The notes: generated from the sequence alone by a model not told the origin. DNA of 52,843 nucleotides from a virus (IMGVR_UViG_3300017917_003366), one strand, 5' to 3'; shown: positions 139 to 35,583, counted from the stretch's first letter. Program-made: numbers and translations.

Positions 139-1881
139 TTAACACTTAAATCTTTTTACTGTTTTATTTCCGTCTTGCTTATTTCTATATTGTTGTTCAT
201 TACGTAAATAGAAATTAATATCATTCTTCACATAATGAATATTATTTATAAATGGATAACTTGTACCAAATCCTTCTGGGTCGATAAATCCATGGTCATA
301 AACATCCCTCCATTTCCACAATAATTCGTTCTCAAAATATTTTGCATTTTGAGGTAATCCATATATTTGATTTGTATTGGACGATTCAACATATGGAGAC
401 AATTGTCTTAATTTTATTCTATAATGTGGTTGATAGTATAATCCCACCATATTATTTGCCGATGAACCTGAGAATGTTAAAGGGTCATCTTGGCTGTGGT
501 CAAAAATTAGAGTCGGGTTTGTTATTTTATGGTATGCCTCACTGATAACTCTTTCTTTTAATTCGGACCTATTATATTCTATAAATGCACCATTAAGTGT
601 TGTTCCTGTTGTTATCGTGCCACCCGAAACAAATGTTACTCCTGATTTTGTAAAAGAACCATAAGGAACCGTTGTTTCAACAGATGTTGACCCACTAAAA
701 TGTTCATCAATCCAAGTATCGTGGAAATTAAATTTATATCCTACTTTATAGGGATAATTAAAATATCCGTTTTTATTTTTGAAAACTATCGAAACATAAA
801 CGTCAGTTGGTAAATAACCAAGATTATTTGTTAATCCTGTTAATGTGAATGGTTCCTTGAAATCATAAATTAATGACTCCATTCTATTTCTATTAACCAC
901 CACATCGTTATCACCAACACTATTTTCAAATATCAATTTTCTTTCGTTTTCCCATATTGGTGATTCGAACCCAATTTTGTCAAGTATAAATGCATCACCC
1001 ATAGTTAATACTTTATGTTTGTGAACATAGTATGTTGATATGGTGTCATCCAATCTATTTCTATTAATACATCTTTTACCAAAAACAACGGTAGATAATG
1101 TTGTGCCTGACGGTATTTCCGATTTACTAATTTCTAAAACATAATTTTCTGAATTATACTTTTCATCACCAACGGAAACAACTGAAAAAGTTCTTCCTGA
1201 TTGAGGTATCGTGTTGTTTAAAGTTCCTCCTGATATCACCACATATTCACCTCTACTGATTCCGTGTTCTACAGGACTTGTTAAGAAATATGATGATTTG
1301 TTCTCTGTTACTCTAAATGGTATACCATCTTCCGCTAAAAAACTAAAAACTGTGTTTCCACTCAACGTATATTTCATCGGATGTTTTGAATCACCCGAAT
1401 AAACATATGATAAACAAATGTTCCAATTATGAAATGGTGCCGTAATCGGAGTAATTTGAACATGGTCAGTTTGACCGGTAATTACAATGTTTTGTGTAAA
1501 CGCCGACAAAACGTTTGTTGGGTTAGAGTTATTTGTTTCTCTTACAACATCATCTCTTAAAAACGCAAATTCATTATAAGGTAAAAATCCATCAAAACGA
1601 TTACCATCGTCGTATACTAAATAAAGATTTTTCTCAAGTGGTTGATATCCTGTTGTACCACTATACAGATTCCTAAAAACCATTTTAAGTTTTCCGTGAA
1701 TTTTATAGTGGGGACTTTCATTTCTTTCTTTAGCAAAAAGAACCGATGTGTCCAATAATATAGTTCTGTCCCCTTCTCTGAGTAAATTTTTAGATTCATC
1801 TAAATTTATTTTTAGATTTAAATCTTCGTCAATTGCTCCAAAGAATTTTTTAGATGGTACTATGAGTCTTTTCTTTTCCAT
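139..1881 (-). CDS. Putative virion structural protein (baseplate periphery), 580 aa
   Basis: Long ORF coupled to the upstream gene (1-nt overlap), downstream of gp6/gp25-like genes. Beta-rich, with many SGxT/TGxT motifs. Confidence 0.6.
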   Translation of the reverse strand: MEKKRLIVPSKKFFGAIDEDLNLKINLDESKNLLREGDRTILLDTSVLFAKERNESPHYKIHGKLKMVFRNLYSGTTGYQPLEKNLYLVYDDGNRFDGFLPYNEFAFLRDDVVRETNNSNPTNVLSAFTQNIVITGQTDHVQITPITAPFHNWNICLSYVYSGDSKHPMKYTLSGNTVFSFLAEDGIPFRVTENKSSYFLTSPVEHGISRGEYVVISGGTLNNTIPQSGRTFSVVSVGDEKYNSENYVLEISKSEIPSGTTLSTVVFGKRCINRNRLDDTISTYYVHKHKVLTMGDAFILDKIGFESPIWENERKLIFENSVGDNDVVVNRNRMESLIYDFKEPFTLTGLTNNLGYLPTDVYVSIVFKNKNGYFNYPYKVGYKFNFHDTWIDEHFSGSTSVETTVPYGSFTKSGVTFVSGGTITTGTTLNGAFIEYNRSELKERVISEAYHKITNPTLIFDHSQDDPLTFSGSSANNMVGLYYQPHYRIKLRQLSPYVESSNTNQIYGLPQNAKYFENELLWKWRDVYDHGFIDPEGFGTSYPFINNIHYVKNDINFYLRNEQQYRNKQDGNKTVKRFKC

Positions 1882-32736: not shown

Positions 32737-35583
32737 TTAGATATTATCAAATGATGCTCCTGTTGGGGTAATTATGAACTCAACGTCAATGAATTCAAGT
32801 GAACGAGTAGGTTTGATGTAAATCTTACCTCTAAGAGTGTTTGCATCGATGTCCTCAGGGTCATTTGATACAGTTACACGGAATTCGTATAAACCTCTTT
32901 CTCTCTTAATTGCTTCAAGAATTGGGTTAACCAATCTCAAGAATTCATTTCTTACTTGTTCATCGTTTTGTTCGAACAATAATCTAACCGCAACTGCTGA
33001 AATTAACTTTCTTGCTCTTAACAACAATCTTCTTACGTTAATTCTGTCCAACGCAGATTCTCTAACTTGAAGGGTTTTGTTACCCCAAATGATAGTACCA
33101 GTATCTGAGAAGGTTGCGATTGGGTTAATTCTGTTTTTATATAATTCATCTCTTTCGTCAAGTGTCAATTTCTTAGTTGCTTTGATAGCTTTTACTAAAC
33201 CTCTTGAGTAACCTGCTACTGCGAACCATGGGAATGACACATTGTCGGTAAGTGCGATGTTTCTAACTACTTCACCTGTTGGTGGGATGTATAATTGGGT
33301 TGCGTTGTCTTGGTCTCTAACCTGAATCCATGGCCAATAGGTTGCTGAATAGTTAGTATCAAGAGCAACTCCATCCAACGCATCTACAACTTCCTCAACT
33401 GTTGGGAAATTAGGTGGAGCAATTATGTAAAGTGAATCCGCTCTATCATTTTCCATAATATCAATCGCTTGTGATGTCAATGAACTATGGTCGTAGAAGT
33501 TAATACCCGGAGTTGCGAAGATGTTGATATCTACCGCTTCAGGGTTAGCGAATGTGTTAATACCTTGTAAATATGCGTAGTAATCTGAGTTTCCAACAGT
33601 TGTACTAAACACACCACCATTTGAAGTATTACCACTTACATATGTTGGTTTTCCGAAGATATAAGCGTCTCCGAATGTTTTCACCTCTCTATAGATGTCC
33701 CAACCATCATAACCACCACATACACCGAATGTGAATTTACGGAAGTTGATGTTTGTTAATACGTTATCCACACCTGATTGTCCTTCTAAGTCATAAGGAG
33801 TTGTGATAAATGTGGTACCTGTGATTGTGGAAGCGTTAGTTGATAAGTGGAAACCACTAGTTGAACCCGCCGCCGCAGTTCCTTTATATTTGAATAGGTC
33901 CTTATCGAATCCAACTTGTGAAGAAAGACCAAATGTGATTTTTCTTACTTTATCACCAGATGAAAGTTTTTCTGTACCGTCAATTTCATAACCAATAACA
34001 TCACCAGCATCGTAGAATTCTGTTTTATACATCACAGAACCCAAAGTTGAACCTGAGAATGATGTATTTGCCGTAAATCCTTTGAAACCTGCAGGGAACG
34101 CATCCACCGGATGGTTACTTGCCATATTCAACATAATGTATTTTGAACGTAATTCATATTCACCGTCAGATGTACCAACTTTTCTTGCCACATAACCTGG
34201 TAGGTCAGGGTTCATTGAACATCTTGTGAATTTCTCGATAACAACCATGTTATCATCGGAATCGTTAAAATCACGAACAATCATATCAAACTCACCTGTT
34301 TCTAAGTTGATGTTGATGATTGATACTTTAACTTGTTCGTTTGCCGCGTTACCGTCAGAAATTGTAATAACTTCAAATAGGTCAGATACTTCACCACCAC
34401 GAACTTCAGATACAACCGTAGGTGACATTGGGGTATCCCACTGTCCAACGAAATTGTTTCCTTCTGCTACGAATACCTCTGTTAAACTTAAACCTCTTAC
34501 AAAACCTTGTTCGAAAGCTGCTTTTAAGTAACTTGGGTATGTTTCATAAACATAAACAGGAACTTCTGATTTTGGTTTATCGAATACATCGGTACCTAAA
34601 ACCTTAGTAATATACTTTGATGAAGTTGTGTCCATTGAACAAGTAAATGTTTTCACACCACTTGTTGCGCCTGTTACAGTAATTGTAAATTCAGAGAAAG
34701 GATTGTATTGTAAATCTGCTCCTGTTACATTAAAGTGAGTGTTTCCTGTTACCTCCAAGTTCAATGTTTGTCCTGAATAAGAACCTCTTGAACGGAAAGC
34801 GGCAACAACGTGGTTGTTGTAATCACCCATTAATGTTGAGCTATAAACGAATTCTGTTACATTAAATGTACCTGTACCACCCGATGTGTATTCAAATAGA
34901 TATGAATAAACTTCAGTTCCCGCAGCATTGCAGAATTGGTTGTACCATTCTTTACCGTTTGGATTGTCGGCATTATTTAAACCTGTTAAAGGAGAAATTT
35001 CTTCTAATATTGCAGATAAACCTGAAGTTGCTGAAGATGGTACCTCACCAATCACGAACCATTGTCCGTCATTTGCTGAAGTGTTACCACTGAAGATTGA
35101 GAATAGGTAATCACCCATTGACTGACCATCATATGCAGTTACTCCCGACATATTTGCGAAGAATGTACTACCTGAAACACTTACCGCCGCAGATGGGTCA
35201 CAAGTTCCCGTGGTAGAACCACTAAGAGAACCTAAAGTAACACCCCCAAGGGTTTTAATTGCGAATGTTTTAACAGGTTTGTAACCTGTAAGACCAAGAA
35301 TTCTGGTCACGAAAAGTTGATTTGATTCCTCAAGGTATGCTTTAGCAACATAAGGTAACTCGAATTTAGGGTTACCGTTTCCATCTTTTACTGGTGATGA
35401 ACCTCCGAAGTAAAGTTTGAACTCATCGTAATCGGTTACAAGAATTGGTTCGAATGCTGGACCTTTAAGGGTCTCACCAACCAATCCAAGAGTTGTAACA
35501 CCAACACTTTGTGCTACGAATGTTAAATCTTTTTCTGATGTGTAGACACCCGGAGATACAAATACTCTATTTGAATTTGCCAT
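32737..35583 (-). CDS. Contractile tail sheath protein (T4 gp18-like), 948 aa
   Basis: FVSPGVYTSEKD, GETLKGPAFEP, YSATYWPW, PWFAVAGYSRG, WGNKTLQ, RINVRRL, IKPTRSLEFI. Confidence 0.95.
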   Translation of the reverse strand: MANSNRVFVSPGVYTSEKDLTFVAQSVGVTTLGLVGETLKGPAFEPILVTDYDEFKLYFGGSSPVKDGNGNPKFELPYVAKAYLEESNQLFVTRILGLTGYKPVKTFAIKTLGGVTLGSLSGSTTGTCDPSAAVSVSGSTFFANMSGVTAYDGQSMGDYLFSIFSGNTSANDGQWFVIGEVPSSATSGLSAILEEISPLTGLNNADNPNGKEWYNQFCNAAGTEVYSYLFEYTSGGTGTFNVTEFVYSSTLMGDYNNHVVAAFRSRGSYSGQTLNLEVTGNTHFNVTGADLQYNPFSEFTITVTGATSGVKTFTCSMDTTSSKYITKVLGTDVFDKPKSEVPVYVYETYPSYLKAAFEQGFVRGLSLTEVFVAEGNNFVGQWDTPMSPTVVSEVRGGEVSDLFEVITISDGNAANEQVKVSIININLETGEFDMIVRDFNDSDDNMVVIEKFTRCSMNPDLPGYVARKVGTSDGEYELRSKYIMLNMASNHPVDAFPAGFKGFTANTSFSGSTLGSVMYKTEFYDAGDVIGYEIDGTEKLSSGDKVRKITFGLSSQVGFDKDLFKYKGTAAAGSTSGFHLSTNASTITGTTFITTPYDLEGQSGVDNVLTNINFRKFTFGVCGGYDGWDIYREVKTFGDAYIFGKPTYVSGNTSNGGVFSTTVGNSDYYAYLQGINTFANPEAVDINIFATPGINFYDHSSLTSQAIDIMENDRADSLYIIAPPNFPTVEEVVDALDGVALDTNYSATYWPWIQVRDQDNATQLYIPPTGEVVRNIALTDNVSFPWFAVAGYSRGLVKAIKATKKLTLDERDELYKNRINPIATFSDTGTIIWGNKTLQVRESALDRINVRRLLLRARKLISAVAVRLLFEQNDEQVRNEFLRLVNPILEAIKRERGLYEFRVTVSNDPEDIDANTLRGKIYIKPTRSLEFIDVEFIITPTGASFDNI

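Follow-up and report, generated by a model that had tools for sequence, protein, structure and literature searches.

We asked why the tetrapeptide [ST]GxT recurs in putative outer virion proteins encoded by a 52,843-nucleotide stretch of viral DNA (IMGVR_UViG_3300017917_003366; hereafter the window), where the first-pass annotation had proposed it as a phage glycosylation sequon. Expected counts were taken from shuffles within each protein, which controls for composition. By this measure the window holds 72 copies against 20.2 expected (z 12.8), and the motif lies 5 to 20 times above chance in those tail, baseplate and fibre proteins of this uncultured jumbo phage from freshwater, and of its relatives, that face outward. 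The copies that had been counted by eye in the 580-aa, 1359-aa, 1926-aa and 337-aa proteins and in the sheath all proved exact on recount, and these proteins stayed enriched after shuffling (Table 1). Two ORFs join that list, the 375-aa ORF and, weakly, the 1596-aa protein.

Table 1. Motif-bearing proteins of the window and a candidate modification enzyme, with observed and expected [ST]GxT counts.
Feature	Coordinates	Strand	Details
580-aa baseplate-region protein, family unassigned	139..1881	-	11 copies vs 0.5 expected, z 15.6; most motif-saturated protein in the window
1359-aa protein	1881..5960	-	9 copies vs 1.8 expected, z 5.5
1926-aa putative tail/baseplate protein ('hub' in the first-pass annotation)	18173..23953	-	8 copies vs 1.5 expected, z 5.7
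1596-aa tail or baseplate protein	24266..29056	-	4 copies vs 1.3 expected, p 0.04; weakly enriched
Tail sheath, 948 aa	32737..35583	-	11 copies vs 1.4 expected
204-aa SAM methyltransferase, Methyltransf_24	44759..45373	-	PF13578, E 5e-18
337-aa protein, between two Thr/Pro-linker fibre genes	48108..49121	-	7 copies vs 1.4 expected, z 4.9
375-aa ORF, at window edge	51655..52782	-	4 copies vs 0.76 expected

[ST]GxT occurs in at least 14 proteins without detectable mutual homology, which upholds, at the level of BLAST, the view that they are unrelated, and neither the 580-aa, the 1359-aa, the 1926-aa nor the 337-aa protein matched a Pfam or PHROG family. The 580-aa protein has its copies at residues 74, 135, 174, 217, 228, 258, 348, 396, 413, 419 and 425. 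Those of the 1359-aa protein form two clusters (residues 582–775 and 1205–1292); its gene lies downstream of that for the gp6-like wedge, an order that would suit a gp7-like peripheral baseplate protein. Seven of the eight in the 1926-aa protein fall within residues 920–1137, including the cluster quoted previously (residues 979–997). In the 1596-aa protein they are at residues 788, 1264, 1438 and 1448. Sheath copies are confined to the N-terminal and middle parts, as had been reported: all lie between residues 121 and 650, in clade-specific insertions, and none at 651–948, in the conserved sheath core at the C-terminus (residues 601–946 match phrog_23 and PF04984/PF17482). Orthologs in a 311-kb relative, G001, carry the motif as well, with 9 copies against 1.5 expected for the 1926-aa protein, 6 against 1.4 for the 1596-aa protein and 12 against 1.9 for the 375-aa ORF, whose ortholog is 702 aa long (250203–252311).

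The motif is limited to a subset of virion proteins, in agreement with the initial description, and is concentrated in the outer insertions of the sheath and in baseplate and fibre proteins; the capsid carries it more weakly. Recounting gave no copies in NrdA, the tube or the gp6-like wedge and two in the polymerase, as claimed, and none in the gp25-like wedge or gp27-like hub of the window or in the portal of G001. Replication enzymes were not enriched. Non-virion proteins do not avoid the motif, however, their observed-to-expected ratio being 1.3–1.5.

The chemistry of the motif is sharp. Position 1 takes Ser or Thr, position 2 Gly and position 4 only Thr. Within the window the reverse motif T.G[ST] (z 0.3), [ST]G.S (z -0.7), AG.T (z 0.8) and [ST]G.[VI] (z -0.6) are all at chance, as is Asn at position 1; the spacing is fixed, with [ST]G..T also at chance (z -1.7), and DG.T is depleted (0 against 5.6, z -2.4). 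We also ran an unbiased scan of about 48,000 three-residue patterns with Thr/Pro linkers masked. SG.T (z 11.0) and TG.T (z 8.1) ranked first and second in the window and were again the top two in G001 (z 8.9 and 12.3, respectively), so selection bias is excluded as the source of the signal. Whether relatives share the motif had been raised as a check, and G001 does. A stricter two-residue mask left SG.T (z 11.7) at the head of the window's ranking and moved TG.T down to fourth; in G001, TG.T came first and SG.T third.

These results bear on whether composition, low complexity or a constraint on the DNA could produce the motif as a side effect. The enriched proteins are moderately rich in Ser, Thr and Gly and the window has low-complexity Thr/Pro linkers, which would suit such an origin. 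Against it, the within-protein shuffles control composition, reversing or shifting the motif brings it down to chance, the signal persists after linker masking, and codons at the motif follow background usage, which places the signal at the protein level. Proteins of similar make-up also lack it: the Ser/Thr/Gly-rich paralog family phrog_8510 is not enriched, nor are the two Thr/Pro-rich window proteins beyond their composition (4 against 3.5 and 5 against 4.2). We therefore rejected this origin, contradicted as it is by the shuffles, codon usage and masked scan, and regard it as very improbable.

Next, we considered how the motif is distributed among relatives. Unrelated phages do not carry it at similar rates: counts were flat in T4, NCTB, LR756508 and Cellulophaga phage phi14:2, and Bacteroidota T9SS surface proteins of like Ser/Thr/Gly content showed no enrichment. 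The clade that bears it consists of freshwater jumbo myophages whose hosts are probably Flavobacteriia. Forty-five close homologs of the 580-aa protein have 6–16 copies apiece, and with divergence the number falls from 7–9 at 51–55% identity to 2–5 at 39–43% and about 1.5 at 35% or less (against 0.35 expected). Distant homologs of the same fold lack the motif at 9 of the 11 sites, with gaps or ordinary N-G, G-D and N-N turns instead. This comparison supports the original suggestion of convergent acquisition rather than a repeat, and shows the motif to be specific to one lineage and no requirement of the fold.

Individual sites turn over. In the 580-aa family, 45 columns record at least 113 gains or losses, and each protein carries 10.9 ± 2.4 copies (0.67 expected). 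Among 54 distinct sheath homologs at 73–99% identity, each with 7–14 copies, three sites are invariant and the others turn over, giving at least 53 events and a count of 9.8 ± 1.4 (1.5 expected); that count varies less than it would if columns were independent (variance 1.98, expected 3.19). Conservation at single motif sites is hardly above that of matched residues. The alignments thus indicate that selection holds the copy number per protein while sites appear and vanish, and over-representation with turnover, independent of fold, is the behavior expected of a sequon. Because the enrichment is strong and the positions shift between relatives, the motif is probably read by something, perhaps a phage sugar-adding enzyme.

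A different possibility is that nothing reads it, and that [ST]GxT is simply this clade's preferred tip for an exposed amphipathic beta-hairpin, with Gly in the turn and a cross-strand Ser/Thr–Thr pair toward solvent; it would have spread because fast-evolving outer domains keep rebuilding their loops with the same solution. The flanks, which appear to fit the tips of exposed hairpins, are those of an ordinary amphipathic two-residue hairpin, and a purely structural role is possible for that reason. Hydrophobic residues occupy position -1 in 61% of copies and position +4 in 44%, hydroxyl residues show a 2–2.5-fold enrichment at -2 (Ser/Thr) and +5 (Thr, alongside Asn), and x, which had been described as varying freely, is in fact Thr, Ser, Asn or Gly in 54%. 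The motif belongs to the two-residue beta-hairpin turn class by its turn Gly, its polar partner and flanks that alternate between hydrophobic and polar residues, and AlphaFold2 agrees: in the model of the 580-aa protein (pLDDT 86.7) every one of the 11 copies is predicted at a strand–loop junction or in a loop. Tight hairpins hold the copies at 174 and 413, and the remaining nine are placed in loops or where strands end. The small baseline that distant homologs retain points the same way, as do the lack of any enzyme that tracks the motif and the failure of cytoplasmic proteins to avoid it. Flavobacterium phage immuto also has a kindred hydrophobic-S-G-T, plainly structural in role, in its repeated Ig-like 'ITISGTP' domains.

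Membership in the hairpin class describes the shape of the motif, however, and does not account for its expansion in one lineage alone, where a single turn dominates; outside it, this fold is built with N-G, G-D and other turns. No such enrichment is seen in beta-rich proteins of T4 or of the Bacteroidota surface. The motif does not accept the beta-branched Val and Ile at position 4, or Ala, Asn and Asp at position 1; site-by-site conservation is weak, unusual for a structural determinant, while density is maintained; and where the sheath model is confident, copies occur in several local contexts (mid-strand, after a helix, hairpin loop). Altogether, we consider an unmodified structural role quite possible, if somewhat doubtful.

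To look for a reader, we turned to the enzymes encoded by the clade. Pfam and PHROG family searches found no glycosyltransferase gene in the window, whereas related genomes encode four to six GT2 genes each, GT4-like genes and a GT60 polypeptide GlcNAc-transferase. The GT60 domain (PF11397) is present in seven clade genomes, among them G001, G003, G004, G007, G008 and G009 (E 1e-37 to 1e-63), and is fused in G001 to a GT7 domain; it was found in at least 193 IMG/VR loci, in none of 14 reference prokaryotes and in none of five control phages. The proposed check of whether relatives encode glycosyltransferases thus found many, but none tracks [ST]GxT, and no enzyme follows the motif across the few genomes examined, in which most clade genes have no annotation. 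GT2 also occurs in the non-enriched phage NCTB, and Glf in one of five genomes. A complete, unrelated phage (G010) has GT60 without motif enrichment (48 against 47.6 expected), and genes flanking GT60 are not motif-rich (186 against 208 expected). GT60 pairs better with Thr/Pro linkers, of which GT60-positive genomes have 30 and 59 segments, as compared to 0–1 in GT60-negative phages. The link earlier drawn to the Thr/Pro mucin-like proteins found no support: they are not motif-enriched, and GT60 fits their linkers better.

The window encodes a single candidate for a modification enzyme, the 204-aa SAM methyltransferase, and the link that had been drawn to it is circumstantial. A member of its family lies inside a glycosyltransferase/Glf operon in G001, but the window gene is not syntenic there, and Methyltransf_24 is present in all genomes compared, including the non-enriched G010.

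As no glycosyltransferase tracks the motif, there is room for another kind of reader, with [ST]GxT serving as a phosphorylation or acylation site or as a docking site for a decoration or cement protein or a host surface component. Specificity, lineage restriction and turnover with maintained density would all be explained. Nevertheless, the clade's proteins, most of which are unannotated, yielded neither a kinase nor an acyltransferase nor a candidate decoration protein, and a four-residue motif spread across many folds would be weak for specific docking. We regard such a reader as unlikely.

Several known systems offer partial parallels to a glycosylation sequon. General O-glycosylation in Bacteroidota, the predicted host phylum, likewise uses a short sequon on many unrelated proteins. 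That system is periplasmic, while virions assemble in the cytoplasm, and its sequon, D-(S/T)-(A/I/L/V/M/T), is not that of the phage, as had been noted; it occurs 43 times in the window against 57.3 expected (z -1.9). The N-glycosylation sequon N-x-S/T is not enriched there either (184 against 184.3 expected). The Asp-box/BNR hairpin (S-x-D-x-G-x-T-W) is another short G-x-T beta-hairpin motif that recurs in unrelated folds. [ST]GxT lacks its Asp two residues ahead of Gly, having Ser or Thr directly before Gly instead, and we found no enrichment of upstream Asp or of Trp after Thr, in keeping with the depletion of DG.T. Heptosylation of the AIDA-I and TibA autotransporters by Aah/TibC (BAHT) enzymes uses a Ser or Thr that opens a short loop between two strands, a geometry that hydrophobic-[ST]-G-x-T-hydrophobic may share. 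Aah has no sequence consensus, though, whereas the phage motif is sharply defined, and a GT9-type heptosyltransferase (PF01075) was found in none of four related genomes by a search that did match four reference bacteria.

Mycobacteriophage virions are glycosylated by phage-encoded glycosyltransferases (Freeman et al., 2023, cited in PMC12619734). By analogy, phage enzymes here would decorate their own structural proteins in the cytoplasm, and the relatives are rich in glycosyltransferase genes. The mycobacteriophage glycans are reported to be on the C-termini of capsid and tail-tube subunits; in our phage the tube has no copies, and the candidate sites are internal (sheath, baseplate, fibres) and follow a defined tetrapeptide. 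The PF11397 genes of the clade recall the GT60 UDP-GlcNAc:polypeptide alpha-GlcNAc-transferases of T. cruzi (pp-alpha-GlcNAcT) and Dictyostelium. A characterized GT60 enzyme is Thr-specific (PMC3769586), which resembles position 4 of the phage motif. What GT60 enzymes are known to accept, on the other hand, is not [ST]GxT but mucin-like stretches rich in Thr, such as KPPTTTTTTTTKPP.

We tentatively favor the reading of [ST]GxT as a modification sequon on virion proteins, and glycosylation is a plausible form for it to take. The enrichment, together with its specificity, lineage restriction, turnover and structural context, is what the data show; that a reader exists, that it attaches a glycan and which residue accepts it are inferred. 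In this reading, hydrophobic-[ST]-G-x-T-hydrophobic marks solvent-exposed hairpin tips and strand–loop junctions on the outer tail, baseplate and fibres and, more weakly, the capsid. There it would be recognized by a trans-acting factor, for which the best candidate may be a phage-encoded cytoplasmic protein O-glycosyltransferase. Such an enzyme would act on the hydroxyl of Thr or Ser in virion subunits that are folded or still folding, and the particle would thereby gain a sugar coat. Somewhat less assured than the sequon itself is this full proposal, in which the clade would direct its own O-glycosyltransferase or glycosyltransferases to hairpin tips and so lay a glycan coat over tail, baseplate, fibres and capsid. 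If it is correct, these phages would have the first bacteriophage system of sequon-directed virion glycosylation, and a mucin-type GT60 system for the Thr/Pro linkers would exist beside it as a separate, second one.

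The tetrapeptide [ST]GxT, which the first-pass annotation had counted by eye in putative outer virion proteins and put forward as a candidate sequon, occurs 72 times in the window against 20.2 copies expected from composition-corrected, within-protein shuffles (z = 12.8). The earlier counts proved exact on recount: the 580-aa protein contains 11 copies (0.5 expected), the 948-aa sheath 11 (1.4), the 1359-aa protein 9 (1.8), the 1926-aa protein 8 (1.5) and the 337-aa protein 7 (1.4), and a 375-aa ORF has 4 (0.76). As had also been seen, the motif is missing from NrdA, the tail tube and the gp6-like wedge protein and occurs twice in the polymerase, while all sheath copies are N-terminal or central and outside the conserved core; these sheath copies span residues 121–650 and fall within clade-specific insertions. 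No copies occur either in the gp25-like wedge or the gp27-like hub, or in the portal of the relative G001 described below. The motif-bearing proteins had been described as unrelated, and we rejected a shared paralogous domain, since a BLAST comparison of the proteins in the window with one another showed no similarity. The proposed link to Thr/Pro mucin-like proteins was not supported, as Thr/Pro-rich fibres are not motif-enriched after composition correction.

Because the motif had been chosen by eye, we enumerated all three-residue patterns in six layouts with Thr/Pro linkers masked. SG.T and TG.T took ranks 1 and 2 in the window, and an independent scan of the full proteome of G001, a 310,691-bp relative, put the same two patterns at the top; under a stricter mask TG.T dropped to 4th in the window and SG.T to 3rd in G001. 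Control sets gave top z values of 5–9, with SG.T and TG.T ranked 39th or lower. The shuffle controls and the masked scan rule out a composition or low-complexity artefact. The reverse motif, [ST]G.S, [ST]G..T, AG.T and NG.T were all at chance level and DG.T was depleted, so that position 1 has to be a hydroxyl residue, position 2 Gly and position 4 specifically Thr. We could rule out beta-propensity alone as the basis of position 4 ([ST]G.[VI], 10 vs 12) and avoidance of deamidation-prone N-G and D-G turns (NG 38 vs 40, DG 33 vs 31). A DNA-level motif was ruled out as well: codon usage at the motif matches background, so that selection acts on the protein. At position 1, G-ending codons (TCG, ACG) are used at ~2.5x background and T-ending ones are under-used before GGN glycine, which is a codon-context effect and not a DNA motif. 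A separate pattern, C..CG, is strongly over-represented (z 8–11.5) in the proteomes of G001 and of G010, an unrelated jumbo phage, probably owing to a repeated Cys-rich domain.

The window (52.8 kb, ~35% GC) comes from an uncultured T4-like jumbo myophage. Besides the tail and baseplate genes already named, it encodes NrdB, a DnaB-like helicase, an exonuclease, a UvsX-like recombinase, SSB, another helicase, a Methyltransf_24 methyltransferase, several large family-less proteins and two fibre-like proteins with Thr/Pro linkers, in addition to NrdA and the DNA polymerase, which is of family B. Judged from its sequence matches, a 372-aa ORF is probably a neck or head-tail adaptor protein, and comparison of the 372-, 400- and 417-aa ORFs with solved structures gave nothing beyond a marginal gp13 neck match. 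Relatives number in the hundreds among the freshwater metagenomes of IMG/VR, their contigs reaching 333 kb, and single-protein queries for more divergent ones returned few short contigs or nothing. G001 (93% complete) is collinear with the window over one segment and carries 242 motif copies against 108 expected, with nearly the whole excess in ~19 ORFs. Looked for across the G001 regions, avoidance of the motif in non-virion proteins was absent. A tandem family of ~12 S/T/G-rich phrog_8510 'virion structural protein' paralogs in G001 shows no enrichment after composition correction and is a useful internal negative control.

Coordinates of genes, regions and sites in the window and in other genomes
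Feature	Genome or contig	Position	Strand	Details
372-aa ORF	window	40666-41784	+	weak T4 gp13 neck matches: phrog_211 E 7e-11; PDB gp13 E 0.07
Methyltransf_24 gene	window	44759-45373	-
Codon bias at motif position 1	window	139-52782
Segment collinear with window	G001	204.8-252.3 kb
Seven-gene sugar operon	G001	107470-114576 (L098:12470-19576)	+	two GT4-like, GT2, unknown, Methyltransf_24, UDP-galactopyranose mutase (E 1e-73), GT2
phrog_8510 tandem paralogs	G001	147-166 kb (L100, L101)		motif 20 vs 16.3 expected
Baseplate-periphery and fibre block	G001	186-210 kb		observed/expected 3.3
Hub-to-sheath block	G001			observed/expected 4.8
Fibres	G001	250-257 kb		observed/expected 3.4
Head module	G001			observed/expected 1.7; major capsid protein 4 vs 0.57
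Replication and metabolic regions	G001			observed/expected about 1.3-1.5, generic baseline
GT60 gene	G001	L093:13589-15988	-	PF11397
GT60 gene	G003	L236:1318-2574		PF11397
S-G-T structural genes	vB_FspM_immuto_3-5A	128146-160366 (L081)
Por_Secre_tail match	phage-like 248-kb contig	G006:C1:16803-17018		247-aa ORF

The clade may be the published 'moraphages', a freshwater lineage with 200-307-kb genomes, predicted hosts in the Flavobacteriia and four core glycosyltransferase groups (PMC12619734). A 248-kb contig in a Flavobacteriaceae MAG (CBFHJJ010000001.1, 248,233 bp) encodes NrdA at 81% and a sheath at 65% identity, the latter with 5 motif copies against 1.4 expected. A Crocinitomicaceae MAG includes a contig of 581 bp that matches a fragment of NrdA at 95% identity. 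In both cases phage DNA was probably binned together with the genome of a host, which gives a weak hint of a host in the Flavobacteriales. A T9SS C-terminal sorting domain (Por_Secre_tail, E 5e-8) was matched in a 247-aa ORF of the phage-like 248-kb contig.

Both families with the highest counts keep their motif density while individual sites come and go. Among 54 distinct sheath homologs (73–99% identity), each has 7–14 copies (9.8 on average, with 1.5 expected); three sites are shared by all, the others are present in 22–93% of sequences, and further columns bear the motif in relatives only. The 45 homologs of the 580-aa protein (57–100% identity) have 6–16 copies apiece, with a mean of 10.9 against 0.67 expected, and these occupy ~45 alignment columns. 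Parsimony on trees requires at least 113 gain or loss events in the 580-aa family and at least 53 in the sheath family, and conservation of the motif residues is just slightly above that of matched S, T and G residues. If columns were independent, the sheath count would have a variance of 3.19; the observed value is lower, at 1.98, while that of the 580-aa family is not below expectation. In the latter family the motif fades with divergence, from 7–9 copies at 51–55% identity to 2–5 at 39–43% and, once identity is no higher than 35%, about 1.5 against 0.35 expected. At 9 of the 11 sites of the window's 580-aa protein, only 0–3% of 58 distant homologs have the motif, which shows that the fold does not need it. 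At these sites the distant homologs have either gaps, which mark the loop as an insertion specific to the clade, or turns of the ordinary N-G, G-D or N-N kind; the window's lineage has both converted and added turns.

In a confident AF2 model of the 580-aa protein (pLDDT 86.7, pTM 0.83), all 11 copies are predicted to lie at strand-loop junctions, in tight hairpins (L|SGN|T at residue 174; residue 413) or in loops. Hydrophobic residues occupy 61% of -1 and 44% of +4 positions against a background of 34%, S/T is enriched at -2 and T/N at +5, and position x holds T, S, N or G in 54% of motifs. These statistics fit an amphipathic two-residue hairpin tip with hydroxyls along its exposed face. A model of the whole sheath was of poor quality (pLDDT 39); just residues ~110–260 could be used, and there motif contexts were mixed. 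Foldseek with the 580-aa model found no match at E ≤ 0.001, and VIA-align found only a small barrel (residues 184–277, Z 7.7) within the noise range.

The motif is not a generic feature of myovirus structural proteins (T4 10 vs 10.9, LR756508 5 vs 2.7, NCTB 15 vs 9.5), of Bacteroidota phages (crAss-like Cellulophaga phage phi14:2, ratio 1.1) or of host surface proteins (13 vs 15.4 in 11 Bacteroidota T9SS proteins of similar S/T/G content). Ordinary Algoriphagus chromosomal sequence gave a ratio of 1.17. Among the comparison sets, a related signal was found only in the Flavobacterium myophage immuto, which has no GT60 gene: hydrophobic-S-G-T occurs 29 times against 9.2 expected in six structural proteins, among them the sheath and tail fibres. 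This idiom differs in spacing, being a contiguous tripeptide usually preceded by a hydrophobic residue, and part of it comes from repeated Ig-like 'ITISGTP' domains.

We then considered which enzyme could act on the motif. Family searches of the window ORFs found no glycosyltransferase gene, and the sole candidate modifying enzyme is the Methyltransf_24 gene. G001 has nothing syntenic to it, its best match there (25% identical) lying elsewhere, and it is therefore an accessory insertion in this phage. Methyltransf_24 genes are present everywhere, and the family was rejected as a motif marker. The relatives do encode glycosyltransferases, as the first-pass annotation had wanted checked, with 4–6 GT2 genes each plus GT4-like genes. 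UDP-galactopyranose mutase from the G001 sugar operon was rejected as a marker, since its presence in 1 of 5 genomes tested makes it an accessory module and not a clade core gene, and the plus-strand block beside one G001 GT2 gene consists of unknowns apart from dUTPase and PhoH. Polypeptide GlcNAc-transferases of family GT60 (PF11397) are found in G001 and five other clade genomes (G003, G004, G007, G008 and G009) and at no fewer than 193 IMG/VR loci, and in 0 of 14 reference prokaryotes and 0 of 5 control phage genomes. The G001 enzyme, 799 aa long, also carries a fused GT7 domain that is beta4-galactosyltransferase-like. GT60 genes are not interleaved with motif-rich fibre genes (186 vs 208 expected in the 10-kb flanks of 80 loci). 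The complete 233-kb phage G010, of an unrelated lineage, has a GT60 gene 61% identical and shows neither [ST]GxT enrichment (48 vs 47.6) nor any other hydroxyl-Gly motif. Thr/Pro mucin-like segments number 30 in G001 and 59 in G010, both GT60-positive, and 0–1 in GT60-negative phages. This correlation and G010 weaken GT60 as a specific reader of [ST]GxT, and the link between the motif and the relatives' enzymes is weak overall. An association with Thr/Pro linkers fits the Thr-rich acceptors known for the T. cruzi GT60 enzyme and suggests that fibre linkers could undergo mucin-type O-GlcNAc glycosylation, parallel to T. cruzi mucins (PMC3769586).

How the motif should be read is a matter of weighing these results. 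We favour a trans-acting reader, most plausibly a glycosyltransferase, because the motif is sharp, fold-independent and confined to the outer proteins of the virion in a single lineage, and because its sites turn over with density kept; that it is a modification sequon we hold tentatively, as somewhat short of probable. Aah/TibC, with its strand-loop-strand acceptor, offers a precedent (PMC3835316), although here no GT9 enzyme is present in the related genomes searched. An unmodified structural idiom is a serious though rather doubtful explanation, kept in play by the hairpin-like flanks, by the failure of every candidate enzyme to track the motif, by the lack of motif avoidance in cytoplasmic proteins and by the structural S-G-T idiom of immuto; site turnover and a 580-aa fold that can do without the motif bear on it from the other side. 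Recognition by another kind of reader, for which the same sharpness and turnover would be expected to count, seems unlikely, and with the shuffles and masked scan in hand we give an artefact almost no weight.

If purely structural, the tag would be an unusual case of one beta-hairpin solution spread convergently over unrelated proteins in a single virus lineage. To our knowledge, phage virion glycosylation has so far been demonstrated in mycobacteriophages only, and without a sequon. If the tag does direct sugar attachment, shielding or tuning of the particle surface would be suggested for abundant lake phages; sequence alone would allow target sites to be predicted in hundreds of jumbo phages that are uncultured, and the tag would, with matching enzymes, offer a compact acceptor for glyco-engineering.
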